Notes: generated from the sequence alone by a model not told the origin. A stretch of DNA of 64,000 nucleotides from a virus (IMGVR_UViG_3300042317_000390:32001-96000); one strand, 5' to 3'. Positions 52,644 to 64,000 are shown, numbered from the stretch's first letter. Numbers and translations: made by a program.

Positions 52644-55553
52644 ATGGATTCTTATACAGAAAAGTTCATTTCTAATTTTATTGAAAGTCAGTTTCCTCAG
52701 TTCTACCAAGAGGAAGGTGAAACATTTATTCTATTCGTTAAAGCATATTACGAATGGATGGAATCCAGTGGTGATATTTCAGGAGACGCTCATGGCGGAC
52801 CAATTAGAGAATCACGTGAATTATTAGAATATAGAGATATTGATACTACAGTCGAAAAGTTTCTTGAATATTTTCAGAAGAAATATCTATATGGTATCCC
52901 ATTCAATGTTATCGTAAATAAAAGATTTCTATTAAAACACATTATCGACGTTTATAGTTCAAAGGGAACTATTCAGTGTTATAAACTTCTATTCAAGATG
53001 ATTTATAACGAAGACGTTGAAGTTTATCTCCCAGGCAGAGATGTTCTTAGAGTATCTGATGGTATTTGGATTGAACCAAGGTATTTGGAAGTATCTTTAA
53101 CTACCAATCTCTTGGATCTTATTGGTAAAAATATTATAGGTAGTGCATCTAAGACGACAGCTCTAGTTGAGTATATTAATACCGAATACGTCAATAACGA
53201 TGCTATTCAAAAAGTCTATATTTCTAATATATCACCAAAAGGCGGTGAGTTCGTAGTTGGTGAAAGAATCATAGATCAGCGTTACATATCTAATACAGAG
53301 ATTGCATCAGCTTCTCCGCTTATTCTTGGTTCTTTGGATAGTCTAGATGTTTTCAACAGTGGCGTTGACTTCCAAGTTGGTGATATTCTTAAGGTAGCAA
53401 GAAGAGATCCAGGCACTGGCGAACAGATGGCGTTCGGCGTTGATGCTTATGTTATGGTTAAATCTCTTTTTCGTGGTTATGGATCTCTAAACTTCACAAT
53501 TCTAAACGGTGGCTTTGGTTTTATGGCCAATGCTTCAGTGTTTATTTACAAGAACGTATTAGATACTACCGGTAGAGGCGCAGACTTTAACATTAAGCTT
53601 GCTGATACTCAAAATCTAGTATATAATACAGATCCTCTAGTTGGTTATTTGGATCTAACTCTAGATGCTACTGCATATGGATTTCCAAGTAACACTTCTG
53701 CTAATTTATCATCAACATTATCTGACGCTCTTGCGTTTTCGAATGGTCTTTTTGGAAGAATTGCAACTCTAACCAACGTTCAAGCTGGTAATGGATATAT
53801 TGCTCCCGCCAACGTTTTCGTTAGATCAACAATAACGTCTATCAACATACCAGGAAGAGTTACCTATTTTAGAGCAGATGATATTTTAAGTGCGTTTACA
53901 TCTACAATATATGCTAACACTACATCGGTTAACAACACAAGTCATGCTTTATTAATAGCAAACGCAAATACAAATTACGATGTAAACGATTTAGTATTAT
54001 ATCGTGTTCCAACTGGTAATGTTGCTATAACGAATCTTAACCCAAATACATTTTATTACGTTAAGACGACAAATACAACATCTGTGACTTTGAGTAAGAC
54101 GTTAGGTGGTAACGTTATTCAAATTTCAGCTAATACCAATGCTAGTGCCGAAACTCATTATCTACTAAACGATATTGTATATCCAACCACACCATCAGTT
54201 AATGGTTATTCGGTTAATGTTTATGCTAATACAACCAGCGTTAACAACGCAACATATGATATTAAGAGCGCCAGCGCTAATACATATCTAAAGGCAGACG
54301 ATTGGATTTATTACGAAGTCCCATCAGGAAATACTCCAATTGTTGGTCTAACTGGTAATAACATCTATTACATTTATGCCTCTAATAGTTCAGCATTTAG
54401 TCTTACTACAGAACCAGGTGGATCTCAGATTTTAATTACTGAGCCAATAACAACAGCCGGTGAGACGCATACATTCAAGACCACAAGATTTAAGAAGTAT
54501 TTCGCTAATGATGATATTGTTTACCTAACAGCCAATAACTCCAATACAGATACAACTGAATTAGCAGTCATTAGACAAGTTGTTGATGATACTAAGATCG
54601 TTTTATATGGCTATCCTAATAACACGTGCACTGATAGTTCTGTATATGGCGTTGCTCCCGTTATCATGCCAGCACAGTTCGCTATTACTGAAACTGTTAT
54701 GAAGCGTCTAGATAAGACGATTAATGGTATTAACGATAGAATTTTAGCTCTGAACTCAAGCGGTAACAATATTGTCGAGACAGTTAGGGCTATTAATTCT
54801 GGTAAAGCTTACGTTGAAGGCGAGACGGTTCACGCATATAGATATGGTATTCTAAACGTCCCAACTATTGCTAATTCTGGTATTGGTTATGCTAATGGTG
54901 ATACTCTTATTTTCTCTGGTGGTCTTACATCATCACCAGCAAGAGGATCAATTCTAACTAATTCATTGGGCCACATAACTTCAATCAATACAACTGCTGG
55001 CGCTTGGTATGCAGGTTCTGGATATAACTCAGTTCCTTCTGTTACAGTTAGATCTACAAACAGTTTAGCTTATGGCGCAGTTCTTTCAACAAGTATCATC
55101 GAATACGACACTGCTAGTGAGATTAGAGGTATTGTTAGAAAAACGGGTATCGGTAGAGGGTTTGGTTATTGGGGTGTAAATGACAGTGAGTTAAACTCAG
55201 ATAAGCGCATTCAGGATAGTTACTACTATCAAGATTATTCATATGAACTAAAGTCTTCTCTTGCATTAGATAAATATAAAGATATTTTATACACCACATT
55301 CCACCCATCTGGGGCTGAAATGTTTGGTAAATTTGAGCTACAGCCTTCTGTCTTACAAAGTCCAATTACTCTGGTTGAAAGTGGGCCAGCATCTTTCTAC
55401 AATTATACGACCTCGGATAGTACATATGTTACTGTTGATAGTGTAAATATATTAGTAAGTGATTATATTTACGCAAATACATGGTTGACCGTTGATTCAA
55501 CGACTATAAATACAAGTAATGCAACATTAACAGTAGATAGAATAGGCTCTTAA
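52644..55553 (+). CDS. 7: Baseplate wedge gp7-like protein
   Basis: FVKAYYEWME..Y.SKGT..LF..IQDSYYYQDYSY..HPSG..FG. Confidence 0.85.
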   Translation: MDSYTEKFISNFIESQFPQFYQEEGETFILFVKAYYEWMESSGDISGDAHGGPIRESRELLEYRDIDTTVEKFLEYFQKKYLYGIPFNVIVNKRFLLKHIIDVYSSKGTIQCYKLLFKMIYNEDVEVYLPGRDVLRVSDGIWIEPRYLEVSLTTNLLDLIGKNIIGSASKTTALVEYINTEYVNNDAIQKVYISNISPKGGEFVVGERIIDQRYISNTEIASASPLILGSLDSLDVFNSGVDFQVGDILKVARRDPGTGEQMAFGVDAYVMVKSLFRGYGSLNFTILNGGFGFMANASVFIYKNVLDTTGRGADFNIKLADTQNLVYNTDPLVGYLDLTLDATAYGFPSNTSANLSSTLSDALAFSNGLFGRIATLTNVQAGNGYIAPANVFVRSTITSINIPGRVTYFRADDILSAFTSTIYANTTSVNNTSHALLIANANTNYDVNDLVLYRVPTGNVAITNLNPNTFYYVKTTNTTSVTLSKTLGGNVIQISANTNASAETHYLLNDIVYPTTPSVNGYSVNVYANTTSVNNATYDIKSASANTYLKADDWIYYEVPSGNTPIVGLTGNNIYYIYASNSSAFSLTTEPGGSQILITEPITTAGETHTFKTTRFKKYFANDDIVYLTANNSNTDTTELAVIRQVVDDTKIVLYGYPNNTCTDSSVYGVAPVIMPAQFAITETVMKRLDKTINGINDRILALNSSGNNIVETVRAINSGKAYVEGETVHAYRYGILNVPTIANSGIGYANGDTLIFSGGLTSSPARGSILTNSLGHITSINTTAGAWYAGSGYNSVPSVTVRSTNSLAYGAVLSTSIIEYDTASEIRGIVRKTGIGRGFGYWGVNDSELNSDKRIQDSYYYQDYSYELKSSLALDKYKDILYTTFHPSGAEMFGKFELQPSVLQSPITLVESGPASFYNYTTSDSTYVTVDSVNILVSDYIYANTWLTVDSTTINTSNATLTVDRIGS

Positions 55554-55575: not shown

Positions 55576-56055
55576 GTGGCTACTCAACAAATCACAATTA
55601 ACGTAGGAACTCCAAATGGTGGCGATGGCGATCCATTAAGAGACGCCATGGTTTCTGTAAATCAGAACTTTTCAAATCTATTCAGCACAGCTATCGTTAA
55701 TACAAACATCACAGTTGGTAACACGTCTGTAAATACTGTTATCAACTCTTCTTCGGTTTCAATTCAGTCCAATAATGGTTTGATTGTTGGCACTAGCACA
55801 AACGGCGCTAATGGCTATACATATCTACCAAATGGGTTTAAGATGAATTGGGGATGGATTTCAGCTAACAGCACTGATGGTAATGCTACGTTCACATCAG
55901 CTTTTACCACCAATGCTTATGTTGTAACGGCTACAAGTAACTCAACAGTAGACACATATCAGGCAGCTGTTGTAGGCACTAACAATACGGTAGCTCGGAT
56001 TAGAACAGCTAATGTTACATCTACAAATGTTTATTGGACAGCCATAGGGTATTAA
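55576..56055 (+). CDS. Small baseplate/fibre protein (gp9/10-like N-terminus)
   Basis: INVGT.N.GDGDPLR.A...VN.NF plus GYTYLPNG...WG..YW.AIGY; late promoter at 55505. Confidence 0.7.
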   Translation: MATQQITINVGTPNGGDGDPLRDAMVSVNQNFSNLFSTAIVNTNITVGNTSVNTVINSSSVSIQSNNGLIVGTSTNGANGYTYLPNGFKMNWGWISANSTDGNATFTSAFTTNAYVVTATSNSTVDTYQAAVVGTNNTVARIRTANVTSTNVYWTAIGY

Positions 56056-56060
56056 GAATA

Positions 56061-57590
56061 ATGGGTTTACTGTTACCATCTTATAAAAAAGCAATAATCG
56101 ATGAGTTGTTAGATAACGTATCTTCAAATACGTCATACTATTATGCTTTTGCAGCAAACCCAACACCTCATAACGGTATTATTCCAACTATCTCAAACGA
56201 TGATCAATTAGCCCTTTTTACTAACGATTGGGAAATGATTTTCGGTAAGAGATTATATCCTTCTAATTTTGCACCACTGATTAAAAACAATCAGTGGACT
56301 ATTAATTCTATATATGATAGATATGATAATACTGATAAAAATCTACTAGCAAATAATAATTATTATGTGATCTCTCCTCCAGAATATACCGGTGGTAGTT
56401 ATAACATTTATAAGTGCCTAGATAACGCTAATGGTGCTCCATCTACTATTAGACCAACAACGATTCAATCTTCAACTTTCCAAACTTCGGATGGATATAA
56501 GTGGAGATATTTGACTTCTATCACATACAAGCAGTATGTTACTTTCTCCACTGTTGATTATTGCCCTGTTTACGCTAATGCAGTTACAACTCTATATTCT
56601 AACACATATGCTGGTGTAGAAGTTGTCATGATTTCTAATTCAGGATCTGGATATTCGGCTTATCATAATGGTATCGTTAGATCTGCTAACTCAACGGTCA
56701 TTCAGATTGAAAATTCTGCCAGCGATCAGAACGATCTTTATAAAGGCTCTGCGATTTACGTCTACAATACAATAACGACAACTTCTCAGATTTTCCAAAT
56801 TTCAAGTTATGTTTCTAACAGCGTTGGTAACTGGGTTTACCTTTCAACTGAAGCTAATACAACAAGTATACTTCCAAATGCTACCCAATATAAGATTTCA
56901 CCAAGAGTTGTTTTTGATACTGACGGGTATAGACAACCAGTTGCTTATAGCGTTGTAGATTCTACATCTAATACTATATCTGATATCGTTGTTCTTGATG
57001 TTGGTGAAGATATTTCTAGAGCTTCTATTTCGTTGGATACAAATTCAGGTTCTGGTGCTAATCTTTATGCGATTACTCCCCCACCCGGAGGTCATGGATA
57101 TGATATTCTATCCGAATTAAACGTCCAAGGTATCTCAATTCAATTTACATTCTCTAATAACGAAAACTCAACGATTCCAACAGAAGCCAAGTATAATAAA
57201 GTTGGTATAGTCAAGAATCCACGCATTTTACTTGCTAATACTGATAGAGGTGGTCAATATACTGCTAACACATATAATCAGTTATTAGAAGCTACAGTTT
57301 CTTCGCCTATTGTTTTCACTGTTGGTGATACTGTTACTGGAGAATCCAGTAATGCAGTCGGAAGAGTTGCCTTTTCTAATACCACAGTCCTGTATTTGAC
57401 AGGAGATAAATATTTCATCGATGGTGAAACCGTAACATCTAGCGATGGCACACAAAGCGTAGATATTACAATAACTAACTTAGGCGATGTATACGCAAAG
57501 AATTTAAGACCAATATATATTGAAAACTTGAATAATGTTACAAGGTCTAATACGACAGCAGAATCATTTAAGTTGATAATTCAAGTTTAA
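56061..57590 (+). CDS. 8: Baseplate wedge gp8-like protein
   Basis: IYKCLDN..ST..P..DGYKWRYL..PPGGHG.D..EL. Confidence 0.85.
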   Translation: MGLLLPSYKKAIIDELLDNVSSNTSYYYAFAANPTPHNGIIPTISNDDQLALFTNDWEMIFGKRLYPSNFAPLIKNNQWTINSIYDRYDNTDKNLLANNNYYVISPPEYTGGSYNIYKCLDNANGAPSTIRPTTIQSSTFQTSDGYKWRYLTSITYKQYVTFSTVDYCPVYANAVTTLYSNTYAGVEVVMISNSGSGYSAYHNGIVRSANSTVIQIENSASDQNDLYKGSAIYVYNTITTTSQIFQISSYVSNSVGNWVYLSTEANTTSILPNATQYKISPRVVFDTDGYRQPVAYSVVDSTSNTISDIVVLDVGEDISRASISLDTNSGSGANLYAITPPPGGHGYDILSELNVQGISIQFTFSNNENSTIPTEAKYNKVGIVKNPRILLANTDRGGQYTANTYNQLLEATVSSPIVFTVGDTVTGESSNAVGRVAFSNTTVLYLTGDKYFIDGETVTSSDGTQSVDITITNLGDVYAKNLRPIYIENLNNVTRSNTTAESFKLIIQV

Positions 57591-57605: not shown

Positions 57606-60600
57606 ATGCCTTTTAAAACAGACTTCAATGTGGCTCCATATTTTGATGATTATAACGAGTTAAAGAATTATCATCGAATTATGTTCAGACCCTCTGTTGC
57701 GGTTCAAGCCAGAGAGTTAACACAATCACAAACAATTTTACAAAACCAGATCGAAAGATTTGGTAATTGGGCTTTTAAAAGCGGTGATATTGTTGAAGGT
57801 TGTATTATTACTGATATTCCTGTTTTACCATACGTTAGATTAGCAGACTTCGCTTCAAATGGTTCCGCTAATAGTGTTGCTTTAAACGTTGTTGATTTAA
57901 TCAATACTGTAGCCACTAGCGTAACTAGCAATCTAAAAGCTCAGGTTCTATTCGCCAATGCTGGATTCTCTACAAGCTATCCAGATAATAATATTCTCTA
58001 TCTAAAATATTTAAATACAGGCACAGGTGGAGAAGCATTATATTCTAATAGTGACCTATTAACATTTGAGCAAGTAACTACCTCTGGTAATGTTGCGATT
58101 GCTAACGTTTATACTTTCGCTAATACCACACCAGGTCAGAACACCACTGGCAATTCTCATGGTATTTCGGTTTCTGATGGAATTATCTTCATCAATGGTG
58201 CTTTCGTAAGAGTATCAAACTCAACATTTGGTCTTGTTAATAATTTCGGAACATATGCTGGTAATAATGTTGTTGCTTTCGATCTAAACGAAACTATTGT
58301 TACAGAAAACCAAGATACTTCACTATTAGATAACGCTCTTGGATATACTAACGAAAATGCACCAGGCGCTCATCGTCTAAAATGCGTTCCAACACTAATT
58401 TCCATAGACCCATCAGAAATCACTGGTAATAATACAATTAACCCTATCGCCATTTACAATTTTGGCGCATTGGTTAAGAAAGATACTCAGAATAAACTTT
58501 ATTCTACAATCGGTGATATTGTTGCTACCAGAACTTACGAAGAATCTGGTAACTATGTTGTTAATCCATTCGCAGTTGATACTATCAGCCTTCCACCCAC
58601 TGGTGGAGCAATTAGCTTCAATTCAAATAACGTATTTGGTAGAATCAATCCCGGTTCTGGTTATGCTCAAGGTTATAGAGTCAACTTAGATGCTACCACA
58701 TATATTAATATGCGTCGTGGTATCGATACAAAGACGAACCTAACGCAGCAGATTACATTTAATTACGGTGGTTACTTCATATTAAACGAAGTTGCCGGTA
58801 GCTTTGATTTCACTAAAGCACAGACTGTAACTCTATATGATACACCACAACAGGCTGTAACTACCAGAACATATTGCAATGTATCACCAACTGGCAATGC
58901 TATCGGTACAGCATCCGTTAGATGTTTCAATTACGCTGGTGGTGTATTAGGTTTAGCAGATACTTCATATTCTTTACACGTCTTTAATATTAAACTCAAT
59001 ACCGGTTATAATATTAATCAGATTAAATCTGTTTATTATGGAACAGGCACAAAGGCAGTCGGTGACGTTGTTTCGAATGGCATCGTTGGTTCTGCTTCCA
59101 AAGAACAATTGTATAGCTTTGGTCTAGGTGGAATAAAGACCGTAGAATATACAAGCACAAACTATGTTTATAGAAAGTTAATCACTGGTCAGAGCATGAA
59201 TACCAGTGGTGTTATTTCTGTAACTTTACCAACGTCTGCCCAAGGTGGTATTGACGAGTTACCATATAGCGCTTCTTTAGTTCCTTTGACAGATCTACAA
59301 GCATCTAACTTTATGTTAATATGCGCAGCAGACGTTGATAGTTCTAATAACCCAGCCGGTGGTACTGCTAGTATTTCTTCTACATCAACCACGGTAACTG
59401 GTAGCTCTACAACGTTTACGACGAAATTCTTCCCTGGTGATAATATTAAAGTTGGCGCTAATTATAGAAAAGTTGTTAGCGTATCGAATAATACGGTCAT
59501 GACCGTTGACGCTGTATGGCCATCCAGTCTATCTGGTCAAACATATAAAAAGAGCTACATTAAGGGTCAAATTCTACCAATCACACAGTATGGTGATAAT
59601 GTTACCTCTACAATTTTAATCAATGATTCAACAACATTCACTATTAATTCTGGACAAATCCCAAGCACTACGTTATCGGTTGATGTTATATTAAACGTTC
59701 TTAGAACTCAGGTAAAGCCTGCAACTAAGGACATTTATAAAGATCGATTCGTTAAGATTAAAGTTGCTAATAGCGTAGGCGGTCCAAATGGTCCATGGTG
59801 CCTTGGTGTTGGTGACGTTCATAAGATTTCGAAGATTTACTCTTCAACTGATGGCTCTTTCAGCACGTCCAACATTGACGCAACTGCGGATTTCATTTTA
59901 GACACAGGACAGAAAGATACCCACTACGATTACGGATATATCTATTCAAGATATGGTTCTTTAGATCCAAATACTTGTTTATTAGTACAAATGGATTATT
60001 TCAACGCTAATACTCAGCAGGGTATTGGATTCTTTACAGTTGATTCTTATCCAGTTGATGATGCTAATACAGCAAATACTAATGCTATTCAGACTAAAGA
60101 TATTCCTCTCTATGTCGATGAGGCTGGAACTAAGAGATATTTAAGAGATTATATCGATTATAGAACTCCAGCTAATAACACGGCTAATAATACTGGAACG
60201 TGTAATACAGCTAATGTTACACAGCTTACCGCTGCTCTTTCTTATGCTACAGTTAATCCATCTGCTACTCTAACTTTCAAGTATGATTCAACTTATGGAT
60301 TAGACGTTCCATCTTATGGTGAGAACTTCGAAGCAAACTATACCTATTATCTACCAAGAAAAGATTTGATCTATATTACGGCTGATAATAAGGTTAAGGT
60401 TAAGGAAGGTCTATCTTCAGCTAATCCTCAGAAGCCACTATATCCTGAGAACGCTATGGCGGTTGCTGTTCTTAACGTTCCTCCATATCCATCCTTATCT
60501 TCTGATGAAACCGATGGAATGAGAGCATTAAACGCATCAGCTAAAAATCTAATTAGAGATACCAACACCGCAATTTCATCAACGATTGTAACAAATCGTC

Positions 60601-61616
60601 GTTATACGATGAGAGACGTTGGTAAGCTAGACCAAAGAATTACCAATCTTGAATATTACACGCAGCTTTCTTTACTAGAGAAAAAGGCAACAGATCTAAC
60701 TGTTACAGATGCTAACGGCCTAGATCGTTTCAAGAATGGTATTTTCGTAGATCCATTCAGCAACTTCTCTCTATCTGATGTATCTAACCCAGAATTCAAT
60801 ATTGCTATCGATGCCCAGAAGGGTGTTGCTAGACCTGCTATCGTAAGAGAAGTTGTAAAAATTAAATTCAATGATGGTAGTACAACTGCTGTTACAAATA
60901 GCTCTGGAACTTTCTATGTTGACTATGTTAATAACGTCCAAAAAACGGGTCGTTCTATCACACTACCATACGATGAGATTTCATTCTTAAGACAACCTTA
61001 TGCAACTAAATATAGAAGTTCTGCTCTCGTAGCATTTGCTTGGAATGGAACTGTTATTCTGATCCCATCTTATGATAATCACGGCGACACTATCAATACT
61101 GGTTCTATGAATATTGTTATTGACAACGCTACACCATGGAGAGATTTCGCCCAAAGCCCATTCGGTCAGACGTGGGGTGATTGGAGAACATCAGTTTCTT
61201 CCGTTAGTAATAGCGTTATCCATCAGGTTACAAGAGACGTTAATCTTGGTTACGTCGCTGGTGGTACAAATGCAGGCGCAGTTGCCGCTAACATTTGGAC
61301 GTATCTTGGTCAGGCTGGTTATAACCCAACCGATTTCACTATCGGCAACCAGAATATCCAATGGACAGGATCTGATATTAGACTAAAACGTGAGATTAGA
61401 TTCTTGAAGAAACTGGTTAACGGAATTAATCTATATATCTTTAAGTATATCTGGAGTGACATTCTATACGTTGGCGTTATGGCTCAGGAAGTACAAAGAG
61501 TCATACCAGAAGCAGTTAGAGCAAATCAAAACGGATTGCTTTCTGTTAGTTATCCAGCTATTGGAATTAAGTTTGAGACATATGAAGATTGGAAAACCAA
61601 TAATTCTATGATTTAA
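57606..61616 (+). CDS. VrlC/DUF4815 virion protein, N-terminal part, ending in a peptidase S74 intramolecular chaperone
   Basis: PYFDDY..FRPS.AVQARELTQ.Q..RTYEESGNY..RYTMRD.G.L..RI.NLEYY..DRFKNG.FVD.F; C-terminal SDIRLK..G.MAQEV..PEAV (from 61371). Confidence 0.9.
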   Translation: MPFKTDFNVAPYFDDYNELKNYHRIMFRPSVAVQARELTQSQTILQNQIERFGNWAFKSGDIVEGCIITDIPVLPYVRLADFASNGSANSVALNVVDLINTVATSVTSNLKAQVLFANAGFSTSYPDNNILYLKYLNTGTGGEALYSNSDLLTFEQVTTSGNVAIANVYTFANTTPGQNTTGNSHGISVSDGIIFINGAFVRVSNSTFGLVNNFGTYAGNNVVAFDLNETIVTENQDTSLLDNALGYTNENAPGAHRLKCVPTLISIDPSEITGNNTINPIAIYNFGALVKKDTQNKLYSTIGDIVATRTYEESGNYVVNPFAVDTISLPPTGGAISFNSNNVFGRINPGSGYAQGYRVNLDATTYINMRRGIDTKTNLTQQITFNYGGYFILNEVAGSFDFTKAQTVTLYDTPQQAVTTRTYCNVSPTGNAIGTASVRCFNYAGGVLGLADTSYSLHVFNIKLNTGYNINQIKSVYYGTGTKAVGDVVSNGIVGSASKEQLYSFGLGGIKTVEYTSTNYVYRKLITGQSMNTSGVISVTLPTSAQGGIDELPYSASLVPLTDLQASNFMLICAADVDSSNNPAGGTASISSTSTTVTGSSTTFTTKFFPGDNIKVGANYRKVVSVSNNTVMTVDAVWPSSLSGQTYKKSYIKGQILPITQYGDNVTSTILINDSTTFTINSGQIPSTTLSVDVILNVLRTQVKPATKDIYKDRFVKIKVANSVGGPNGPWCLGVGDVHKISKIYSSTDGSFSTSNIDATADFILDTGQKDTHYDYGYIYSRYGSLDPNTCLLVQMDYFNANTQQGIGFFTVDSYPVDDANTANTNAIQTKDIPLYVDEAGTKRYLRDYIDYRTPANNTANNTGTCNTANVTQLTAALSYATVNPSATLTFKYDSTYGLDVPSYGENFEANYTYYLPRKDLIYITADNKVKVKEGLSSANPQKPLYPENAMAVAVLNVPPYPSLSSDETDGMRALNASAKNLIRDTNTAISSTIVTNRRYTMRDVGKLDQRITNLEYYTQLSLLEKKATDLTVTDANGLDRFKNGIFVDPFSNFSLSDVSNPEFNIAIDAQKGVARPAIVREVVKIKFNDGSTTAVTNSSGTFYVDYVNNVQKTGRSITLPYDEISFLRQPYATKYRSSALVAFAWNGTVILIPSYDNHGDTINTGSMNIVIDNATPWRDFAQSPFGQTWGDWRTSVSSVSNSVIHQVTRDVNLGYVAGGTNAGAVAANIWTYLGQAGYNPTDFTIGNQNIQWTGSDIRLKREIRFLKKLVNGINLYIFKYIWSDILYVGVMAQEVQRVIPEAVRANQNGLLSVSYPAIGIKFETYEDWKTNNSMI

Positions 61617-61627
61617 CGGAGATTAAA

Positions 61628-64000
61628 TTGGCAAGTTTATCTACAAATACTACAACTACGGTAACAACAACTACATCTGATAGATCTGGTTTTCAGTTAC
61701 AGGTAGACTCTCAGGCCAATACCATTTCGGTTGGTGATTACGTTACTGACGTTTCTATTCAGCCTTATATTGCTCCTAGAATTATTTCTTTTCTTGCTTA
61801 TAATATGCGTCCTAATCACAGAATGCATATCTTCTTTGATAGCATTAACGTTGACGATTTTTGCGCTCCAGCGGTCAGAACTGTATCTAACACCTATAAC
61901 ACAGCTATCACCAACACTTCTGATTATAATAGCATACCTAGAAACGGTAACTGGGGAACGGCTATTTACAGTGATGTTAACGGTGTAGTTGCAGGTCAGT
62001 TTGCTATTCCAGAAGCTACATTCAGAACTGGCGACAGAAACCTACAAATTTCAGACGTTGATAGCTTATCTTTAGGTAATACGGCTTTTACAACAATTTG
62101 TTCCGGTAGATTTACAGCATCAAATCTAAGCGTTTCAAAACGAGCTATCACACTAACGACAGTAAATCCACAACTTTCTTATCAACCCATTGAAGAAAGA
62201 GTTGTTACTACAAATACTAGTGTTACCGTTCAATCTATTCCTGATATTCTAAACGTAACAGCTTTCTATGAACCTATCGCTCAGTCCTTGACGATTAATA
62301 CATATGATGGTCAAGCTGGTATTTACGCTACAGCTCTAGATATTTACTTTAAACAGAAATCTCAAATTTCTACTAACGGCGTAACTGTTTATCTTTGCGA
62401 AGTTGATAACGGCTATCCAAATGGTAATGCCATTCTTCCATTCTCAACGGTTCACTTAAATAGCAGCCAGATTTCTGCCAGCAACGATGCAACTGTTCCT
62501 ACTACTTTCCGTTTTGAATCTCCAGTGTTCTTAGCTAACGGAAAACAATATGCTTTTATCGTTAAACCAGATGCCAATGACCCAGACTATTATGTTTATA
62601 GTGCTAATTTAGGTGACATTGATATCACAACTGGCGCACAGGTATTCAGTCAGCCAACAATAGGCACTGCGTTCTACGGCGCTACTATGAATCAGTGGAC
62701 TGCTCTACAGACAGAATATATTAAGTTTGAACTGAAGAGAGCAAGCTTTAATCAGAACTCAGGTAACGCATATTTCAATAATATTGATACAGATTTTATT
62801 GAAATATATAATCTATCTTATGTTAATACATCAGCTGGTGTATTGCCAGGCGATTATGTATTCGATTGCGACCAGAATAACTTTAATATTGTAGCTAACA
62901 CTACAGGATTTAATAATAGCACTGATGTTATTAAGATCACTAACGCTAATACATACATTAAATTATACGATAGAGTATACTATAGCGTTCCAGCGGCAAA
63001 TACTCCTATTGCCCCACTAACTGGCAATTCTTATTACTATGTAAGTTTCGTAAACACATCATCGGTTGCGCTTTCTTCTACGGTTGGTGGTGCTAATATT
63101 GATATTACCGATACTAGAACAACAGCTACAGCCGAAACACACGTTATTAAATCGTTGAAGGCTAATACTAGCATCTACGGTTCATTGAATTATTTTGATA
63201 CCGTTAAGAGCTTATTGTACGTAGATGATACAACTGGTAACTTTAAAGAAAATTCAAATATCCAGATTCATAGATTTGCTAATTCAACGGCTATCTCAAG
63301 CGTTGGACCTAGCCATAATACCATGGTTGGTTTCGCAAACTCTTCAACTTTACATAACGTCGTATTAGACGCATTAGTTCCTCAGTTTGCATATATTACT
63401 CCAGCCGGAACTACCTTATCCTTTAATTATAAGGGAATGGCTAATACATACGCTGACTATTCTTCTGATGTAGAACAACCAATCATACCTGGGTATGAAG
63501 TAGAGTTTTTAGATAAACAGAGAATGGTAGCTAGTAGAACTAACGAAATTACATCTGGTGGTAGTAAGAAGTCTATGCAGATTCGTGCTAATCTAACCAC
63601 GGATTCTGAATATATTTCTCCCTTGATTGATACTGTTAGAAATCAAGAACTCGTTATTGGTAACGATGTTGACCCAGTATCGTTCAGTTACGAAGAACTC
63701 TTAAATAATGGCACATCAAAGTCAAAGTATATTTCACAGATTGTAACTTTGGCTACAGGTCAAGACGCTCAGGATATTAATATATCTCTAACGGCATTTA
63801 GACCACCAGGATCTGATATCAAGGTTTGGGTTAAGTTCCTAAATGGCGATGATACTGATCCTATGTCTTCAAAAACTTGGACTCCTTTAATTAATCAAAA
63901 CGATTCTTTCTATAGCGATCCAAGTAACCCATCAAACTTCAGCGAGTTCGTGTATACAGTCCCAGCAGCTTTTGGTATGATCCCAGTCGTTGGTACTATA
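61628..64000 (+). CDS. VrlC/DUF4815 C-terminal part (runs off window end)
   Basis: TTG start after GGAG; GDYVTDVSIQPYI..RPN...FFD..EPIAQS..LDIYF..NGYP..F.F.SPV.L; missed by the ORF track. Confidence 0.85.
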   Translation, partial: MASLSTNTTTTVTTTTSDRSGFQLQVDSQANTISVGDYVTDVSIQPYIAPRIISFLAYNMRPNHRMHIFFDSINVDDFCAPAVRTVSNTYNTAITNTSDYNSIPRNGNWGTAIYSDVNGVVAGQFAIPEATFRTGDRNLQISDVDSLSLGNTAFTTICSGRFTASNLSVSKRAITLTTVNPQLSYQPIEERVVTTNTSVTVQSIPDILNVTAFYEPIAQSLTINTYDGQAGIYATALDIYFKQKSQISTNGVTVYLCEVDNGYPNGNAILPFSTVHLNSSQISASNDATVPTTFRFESPVFLANGKQYAFIVKPDANDPDYYVYSANLGDIDITTGAQVFSQPTIGTAFYGATMNQWTALQTEYIKFELKRASFNQNSGNAYFNNIDTDFIEIYNLSYVNTSAGVLPGDYVFDCDQNNFNIVANTTGFNNSTDVIKITNANTYIKLYDRVYYSVPAANTPIAPLTGNSYYYVSFVNTSSVALSSTVGGANIDITDTRTTATAETHVIKSLKANTSIYGSLNYFDTVKSLLYVDDTTGNFKENSNIQIHRFANSTAISSVGPSHNTMVGFANSSTLHNVVLDALVPQFAYITPAGTTLSFNYKGMANTYADYSSDVEQPIIPGYEVEFLDKQRMVASRTNEITSGGSKKSMQIRANLTTDSEYISPLIDTVRNQELVIGNDVDPVSFSYEELLNNGTSKSKYISQIVTLATGQDAQDINISLTAFRPPGSDIKVWVKFLNGDDTDPMSSKTWTPLINQNDSFYSDPSNPSNFSEFVYTVPAAFGMIPVVGTI

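Follow-up and report, generated by a model that had tools for sequence, protein, structure and literature searches.

VrlC is a core structural gene linked to double-layered baseplates (PMC7029224, PMC4621102). In the virus IMGVR_UViG_3300042317_000390 it is spread over two open reading frames (ORFs), the first of which ends in a Peptidase_S74 domain, a member of a family of self-cleaving chaperones. How did this two-gene arrangement arise, and was the S74 domain its cause? The question was addressed in a stretch of 64,000 nucleotides (hereafter the window), corresponding to bases 32001-96000 of an IMG/VR record of 168,653 bp that is rated complete, and in relatives of this virus. A preliminary description of the window had proposed that an S74 module landed inside VrlC and forced it into two chains, with a processed and possibly reactive end. 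Our results favor the opposite order with moderate confidence: gene fission first and S74 later is the best-supported sequence of events, and S74 is best read as a secondary add-on at its usual C-terminal place, gained, lost or exchanged repeatedly.

The identification of ORF1 as a VrlC/DUF4815 gene was borne out by Pfam, PHROG and PDB matches. DUF4815 (PF16075) was matched with 179.3 bits (E 1.4e-52, gathering cut-off 30). In the phrog_358 profile (2056 positions), ORF1 covers positions 1-1156 and ORF2 about 1163-2021, in the same order and with no gap; thus, the two ORFs are the halves of a protein that is single-chain elsewhere. Both also matched a single PDB chain, the DUF4815 protein in the baseplate of phage 812 (9euf); the ORF2 match is at residues 792-948. 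Pfam gave no match for ORF2, and its family assignment comes from phrog_358. In the whole record ORF2 is 989 aa long (L083:4629-7598) and ends at window coordinate 64597. As the preliminary description stated, the break lies in the variable loop after the WGDW motif, at which alignments to relatives stop (W1193 is invariant across 79 relatives, G1191 nearly so). ORF2 starts in another frame, 11 nt after the ORF1 stop. A TAA at 61601-61603 shuts this frame shortly before the start, and the stretch after it, 61604-61613, contains no slippery heptamer, indicating that the two products are made by separate translation. An assembly artifact is ruled out, since an identical ORF1 protein is recorded on 13 contigs, and 15 clusters at the 90% identity level, drawn from several sources, combine DUF4815 with S74.

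The frequency of the split among relatives was assessed by retrieving 80 IMG/VR loci and reading the junction in each. All 36 loci of 44-63% identity with a readable junction were split at the same hinge (37 of 37 with the window), and S74 was found in 5 of these 36. At 32-38% identity nearly all loci were single chains; more distant relatives carry both parts as one continuous chain, as the preliminary description had stated. It had also named, as an outcome that would count against its proposal, homologues that are routinely two genes with S74. They are routinely two genes, but mostly without S74. Similarly, in a large protein collection the proteins closest to ORF1 were almost all 1210-1410 aa long, and beside the 15 clusters with both domains about 65 clusters contained DUF4815 alone and stopped soon past WGDW. 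In a tblastn search against deposited phages, cultured relatives carried both parts in one frame of one coding sequence (CDS), namely Rhizobium phage RHph_I1_18, Pelagibacter phages HTVC008M and Mosig, Methylophilales phage Melnitz, Sinorhizobium phage phiM12 and cyanophages; the VrlC of none of these carries S74. Two apparent splits in deposited phages were discarded: that of phiM12 is really one 1802-aa CDS under spurious opposite-strand ORFs, and that of IME-SM1 is elsewhere in the gene, between overlapping ORFs, and is probably a frameshift.

One pair of loci from different samples, L073 (6504-6660) and L076, was split at the same hinge while nested among single-chain forms. These loci display a distinct 34-aa tail, an ATG start and no S74, and their fission is independent of that in the window's clade. 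Together with the 36 clade loci they make up a set of 38 split loci, in all of which a purine-rich site (GGAG, AGGAGA or close) precedes the second gene; the start is mostly TTG-GCA. The second gene always opens at a poly-Thr stretch, which in single chains comes after a Ser/Thr-rich loop of 15-45 aa past WGDW. The spacers between the two genes range from 0 to 57 nt, and several contain extra in-frame stops, some TATAAATA, the T4 late-promoter consensus, as expected for genuinely separate genes. Readthrough was considered, the second gene being in frame in about half of the split loci, and was dropped in view of the multiple stops and the gene's own ribosome-binding sites. As for promoters, L004-L009 and L008 have spacers of 36-39 nt with TATAAATA, and the C-fragment of the L004-L009 phages may have its own promoter. 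In the window no TATAAATA was found between ORF1 and ORF2, and the nearest one on the + strand is at 55505. For annotation, these data mean that many uncultured T4-like phages have 'VrlC' as a pair of genes, with a genuine TTG start for the second ORF.

The order of events was examined on trees of the VrlC core only, tail excluded (FastTree, 144 rows; IQ-TREE, 61 rows). The split forms, 107 rows on the core tree, make up a single clade with support of 97 (FastTree) and 96 (IQ-TREE); the second gene was seen for 38 of the 107, and the others were classed as split by length. The sister of this clade is a single-chain form, P0082, and the other single chains fall outside. The earliest split branches (L030, L023 and P0055) are devoid of S74, which is present in only 18 of the 107 rows, in five or six separate places requiring at least 8 changes. 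Sankoff parsimony needed 8 changes from an S74-less ancestor vs 10 from an S74-bearing one, and 14 vs 15 when gains were costed at three times losses. In an approximately unbiased (AU) test, a single clade of S74 carriers was rejected (log-likelihood difference 847, p 2.5e-6). Once present the domain can persist, as in one clade of 15 rows where it was kept in 11, and it can also be lost: P0036, without S74, is nested among carriers and, with L032 (described below), is evidence of losses. Moreover, S74 is joined to two different tail subtypes, a clear sign that the C-terminal cassette recombines. A single-chain VrlC with S74 in its interior was met neither in proteins sized 734-5000 aa nor in any of 98 single-chain loci, and no fused form longer than 2338 aa was found, the latter being weak evidence.

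Several points weigh against this order. Given the recombination of the cassette, a tree of the core may not record the history of S74. The parsimony margin for a split-first history is small (8 vs 10). In addition, the tree of S74 itself, with 87 columns, is too weak to tell one acquisition followed by spread from several acquisitions.

The new C-terminus created by the split has a character of its own. In the window, the tail past WGDW opens with a strand rich in Ser/Thr, turns at LGY, continues into a helix and closes with a strand of the I-G-N type whose last residues are ..QWTG. A single similarity cluster takes 97 of 108 tails, which share a mini-domain of about 55-60 aa with a Thr-rich strand, the LGY turn, a helix and an I-G-N-L-type strand; single-chain forms have merely a Ser/Thr-rich loop where the split clade has this mini-domain. 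An AlphaFold2 (AF2) model placed the helix at residues 1223-1236, with a predicted local distance difference test (pLDDT) score of 42-76 over the tail. Where S74 is present, it directly abuts the final strand of the mini-domain. Eight distinct S74-less tails stop 0-1 residue from the column of the S74 serine; P0016, for example, ends in ..EFRG at the place of the window's ..QWTG, which precedes S-D-I-R-L-K. Other S74-less tails bear alternative extensions of 5-15 residues or longer. In L032 (6603 region, ..KHGSDAPVV..), 'GSD' is kept at the position where S74 starts in its sisters, but the residues after it are unrelated, suggesting the remnant of a lost S74. More generally, the C-terminal extension past the mini-domain is hypervariable, with at least 5 types. 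Uncharged tails rich in Gly and Trp/Phe (such as ..AWVIG..GWW or ..GGGWMSFGGGIGF) were seen in P0037, P0050, P0062, P0072 and P0080 and in L177, L185 and L193.

The S74 domain itself, with both its Ser and Lys, is present at the extreme C-terminus of the first product, as had been proposed. PF13884 was matched over residues 1256-1305 with 32.4 bits in whole ORF1 and 36.8 bits in the C-terminal piece alone (cut-off 22). The G-SDIRLK start is encoded from 61368, with the codons of Ser1256 at 61371-61373 and of Lys1261 at 61386-61388, and the domain measures 81 aa from the Ser to the stop. In the S-D-x-R-L-K start, no change of S, D or K occurs in 46 domains of this short type or in any VrlC copy. 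The 16 distinct VrlC S74 domains are 47-57% identical, and in each the Lys follows the Ser by five residues. The short type forms a large family, with 3069 representatives at E <=1e-3, and behaves as a terminal domain, its Ser lying 70-109 residues from the protein end in 127 of the 135 measurable top matches. Its carriers are highly varied and include caspase-like proteins: across P0085-P0090, P0092, P0094 and P0100 it terminates Peptidase_C14 proteins and is doubled in some small proteins.

Similarity to structurally solved S74 domains was detected at the profile level. A profile of 7 sequences reached MyRF ICA (7dc3, E 2.6e-4) and phage S16 gp37 (6f45, E 6.5e-4); phmmer with the S74 piece alone gave no match to PDB sequences. 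The AF2 model of the domain had a mean pLDDT of 85. Its likeness to known folds was weak, with MyRF ICA on top (Foldseek E 0.4; Z 3.4), followed by 3gw6 (Z 2.6) and 3gud (Z 2.4), the model being a monomer and the solved structures intertwined trimers. This weak likeness and the short length of the domain, 81 aa vs about 110-150 aa in characterized chaperone domains, also weigh against the proposed function, and self-cleavage thus stays a prediction. With a 436-aa model, Foldseek yielded only weak matches to the phage 812 tripod (E 1.9e-3). A prediction of a three-copy complex of residues 1010-1336 scored 0.00; the partner's own fold was uncertain, so that this is evidence neither way. As to the source of the domain, the S74 of a fiber-like gene of the same genome was ruled out as donor, being of the long type and 32% identical. 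In GenBank phages, no VrlC gene with this tail plus S74 was found, and the S74 matches were all in fiber or structural genes. Finally, Pfam revealed no Hint family in ORF1, neither at E <=1 in residues 1199-1336 nor at E <=0.01 over the whole ORF.

S74 chaperone domains are known from fibers and spikes. Those of the endosialidase, of the T5 and S16 fibers and of GA-1 gp12 are trimeric and fold the upstream trimer, and their Ser-Lys dyad cuts before the Ser. The window's domain belongs to the same Pfam family as those of K1F endosialidase (3gw6), GA-1 gp12 (3gud), T5 pb1 and S16 gp37 (6f45); it shares their Ser-x4-Lys start and, like them, stands at the extreme C-terminus of a virion protein, here one predicted to be trimeric as theirs are. 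It differs in its carrier, a baseplate tripod fragment instead of a fiber or spike, and in its length, and its cleavage and chaperone action are predicted. The tripod protein of phage 812, gp119 (DUF4815), is a homotrimer on a three-fold axis and undergoes large domain movements on contraction (PMC13433997), which fits a trimer-dependent chaperone on VrlC.

Altogether, we propose a two-gene tripod, arisen by a single fission and later fitted with an S74 that aids trimer formation and is then removed, an account to which we give a probability of about 0.7. The ancestor of the split clade, a large group of uncultured T4-like phages, would have undergone fission once, at the Ser/Thr-rich hinge past WGDW. 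This event would have produced a new C-terminus capped by a mini-domain of about 60 aa, and a TTG start behind a strong ribosome-binding site. Later, some lineages, among them that of this phage, would have acquired a short-type S74 at the new C-terminus. By analogy with the characterized domains, this S74 most likely nucleates or checks the formation of the N-fragment trimer, then most likely cuts itself off at Gly1255/Ser1256 via the Ser1256/Lys1261 dyad. The mature N-fragment would then end in ..QWTG, the natural end of S74-less relatives, and would assemble non-covalently with the C-fragment into the tripod.

Two other readings of the domain's role were weighed, both of which we find unlikely. 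S74 might be a neutral passenger, spreading by recombination among co-infecting phages since a free C-terminus accepts it. Its patchy distribution, with at least 8 changes and two tail subtypes joined, fits this idea, as do the evident viability of S74-less sisters and the other C-terminal extensions that take the same place. Against it, the domain has stayed 47-57% identical across deep branches, its catalytic residues intact, and 11 of the 15 rows of one clade still have it. Alternatively, S74 might never be removed and act, as a degenerate short form, as a permanent trimerization or docking knob on the N-fragment. Its 81 aa, the lack of the long C-terminal helices found in the fiber-type S74 of the same genome (32% identity) and the weak fold similarity to solved chaperone domains would agree with such a role, to which we give the same low standing. 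On the other hand, the invariance of the Ser/Lys dyad in the 16 VrlC domains and the 46 short-type domains is difficult to account for unless the domain is catalytic; the ends of S74-less relatives coincide with the predicted cut, as though the mature products were equivalent; and the short type forms a large and conserved family, nearly always at the protein end.

Table 1. Features of the VrlC locus and of related loci; coordinates without a prefix are those of the window.
Feature	Location	Strand	Remarks
ORF1, VrlC/DUF4815 N-fragment precursor	57606..61616	+	1336 aa including tail and S74
WGDW motif	61173..61184	+	residues 1190-1193; closes the conserved part of the N-fragment core, ahead of the hinge
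Tail mini-domain	61191..61370	+	residues 1196-1255; found specifically in the split clade
Short-type Peptidase_S74 domain	61371..61613	+	residues 1256-1336; predicted cut Gly1255/Ser1256
TAA stop (61614-61616), GGAG Shine-Dalgarno (61618-61621), 6-nt spacer	61614..61627	+	sequence reading
ORF2, VrlC C-fragment	61628..64000	+	TTG start, other frame; leaves the window
gp8-like baseplate wedge subunit	56034..57590	+	upstream neighbor; phrog_438 'baseplate wedge subunit', E 2.5e-53
Hint domain at N-fragment end	L132:7349-7987		also L163-L167, L170-L172
In-frame Hint domain, single-chain VrlC	L097:8249-8746; L072:9086-9619		second hinge, ~190 residues into the C-half
Fiber-like protein with long-type S74	G000:C1:116991-118265 (L084:2992-4266)		424 aa; sole other S74 of the genome

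Breaks and self-cleaving modules are not confined to the window's clade. Wider VrlC sampling revealed a second, separate split clade near the same hinge, whose sisters are the single-chain forms L180 and L181. In eight loci of this clade, representing three sequence types, a Hint domain ends the N-fragment. In L132, Pfam identified this domain as Hom_end_hint, with 44.4 bits against a cut-off of 32.1, and as Vint, with 28.4 bits against 27. It displays a Cys start, a T-x-x-H block and a ..VVHNK end followed by the stop. The Hint-ended forms are nested among Hint-less split forms with Gly/aromatic-rich tails. What occupies the loop of DUF4815 homologues, S74, Hint or nothing, was a question raised by the preliminary description, and all three occur, in different lineages. 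The 'reactive terminus' it had envisaged finds no support for S74 and is conceivable solely for the Hint-ended relatives of this other clade.

A second hinge in the C-half also accommodates breaks. Two single-chain forms, L097 and L072, have an in-frame Hint domain there, and their relative L066 is without the insert. The L097 domain scored 38.2 bits, above the cut-off, and has a Lys after ..HN, which leaves no splicing nucleophile; judged from the residues present, splicing looks impossible in L097 and L072 and cleavage possible. In L110, L112 and L127 the gene is split at this second hinge. The N-fragment of L127 ends in a Tyr/Gly/Asn-rich tail, and that of L110 and L112 gains a PKD domain and a C-terminal domain of about 170 aa. 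By eye, the latter resembles a Hint domain (Cys start, ..SHN near the end); this identity is not claimed, as Pfam lends it no support.

Hint domains are self-cleaving like S74, and the bacterial intein-like domains found here sit both on split N-fragments (the L132 clade) and in frame (L097 and L072). Hint chemistry, with a Cys thioester and Asn cyclization, differs from that of S74, and we know of no role of Hint domains in trimerization. Tentatively, and with more doubt than belief, we suggest that VrlC has at least two hinges that tolerate or favor breaks, reached by fission, by an in-frame Hint or by fission plus a removable C-terminal cap (S74 in the window's clade, Hint in the other). 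The recurrence of such unrelated caps might imply that a transient cap or an assembly checkpoint is required on the N-fragment prior to its joining the C-fragment. If true, recurrent self-removing caps would constitute an assembly step of double-layered baseplates that has not been described before.

These forms also bear on the mechanism first proposed for the window, in which S74 inserted in a single-chain VrlC would have created the two-gene layout, the S74-less split relatives being secondary losses. We consider it less probable still than the two readings above. S74 is indeed confined to split forms (6 of 49 split loci vs 0 of 98 single-chain loci), its losses are real, as seen in the 'GSD' of L032 and in P0036 among carriers, and an S74-bearing ancestor costs just two extra parsimony steps. 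Moreover, the in-frame Hint domains of two single-chain relatives show that cleaving modules do enter the body of the VrlC gene. But the split is clade-wide and S74 is missing in the three earliest split branches and in 89 of the 107 rows; L073 and L076 split independently at the same hinge without it; and neither proteins of up to 5000 aa nor the 98 single-chain loci yielded an intermediate with S74 inside the chain. An internal S74 would, after cleavage, remain on the downstream part, and nothing of this kind was observed. In the second split clade, too, the split came first and the module, here Hint, later. The idea that S74 insertion forced the two chains is thus not supported. As for a fusion of the ORFs in translation by frameshift, readthrough or ribosome bypassing, giving one chain with an internal S74, the 11-nt distance is the only point in its favor, and the closed ORF2 frame without a slippery site, the GGAG at ideal distance from the TTG and the relatives' spacers of 0-57 nt with several stops and some late-promoter-like TATAAATA already refute it at the sequence level.

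With fission first and S74 later as the preferred order, the locus can be compared with known systems. Single-chain VrlC proteins (HTVC008M, RHph_I1_18, phiM12 and cyanophages; phrog_358) show collinear homology to both ORFs and lie in the same baseplate gene block, beside gp8. They differ in being continuous, with the Ser/Thr-rich loop between WGDW and poly-Thr in place of mini-domain, stop and S74. Staphylococcus phage 812 gp119 (9euf/9eui) and its homologue in Listeria phage A511 are of the DUF4815 family like the window protein. However, gp119 is a single chain of 1152 aa, about half the combined size found here, with no self-cleaving domain, and the similarity is in two segments. MyRF ICA (7dc3), the best profile and structure match of the window's S74, is internal and by cleavage splits one precursor into two functional halves, which is what the preliminary description had imagined for VrlC. 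In the window, by contrast, a stop codon followed by a new start yields the two chains, and S74 stands at the end of the first.

In the literature, no paper was found that links VrlC or tripod proteins with S74 or inteins. We rate the novelty as that of a known chaperone on a new carrier, combined with gene fission of a known protein. A tripod fragment with S74 and sister phages without it offer natural paired comparisons for the chaperone's part in trimer assembly. Furthermore, the independent fissions at the same hinge, the Hint-ended clade and the in-frame Hint domains at the other hinge point structural biologists to defined positions for cutting the tripod. They also hint at a role of chain breaks in large conformational changes such as those seen in the phage 812 tripod.

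Regarding the surroundings of the locus, the gp8-like gene lies directly 5' of ORF1, a baseplate gene-block context as in T4-like myoviruses. Past the end of the window, the last 200 residues of ORF2 match the N-terminal part of the tail-fiber families phrog_1980 and phrog_17834 (residues 787-877, L083:6987-7260); this tail-fiber-like end of the C-fragment falls outside the phrog_358 profile.

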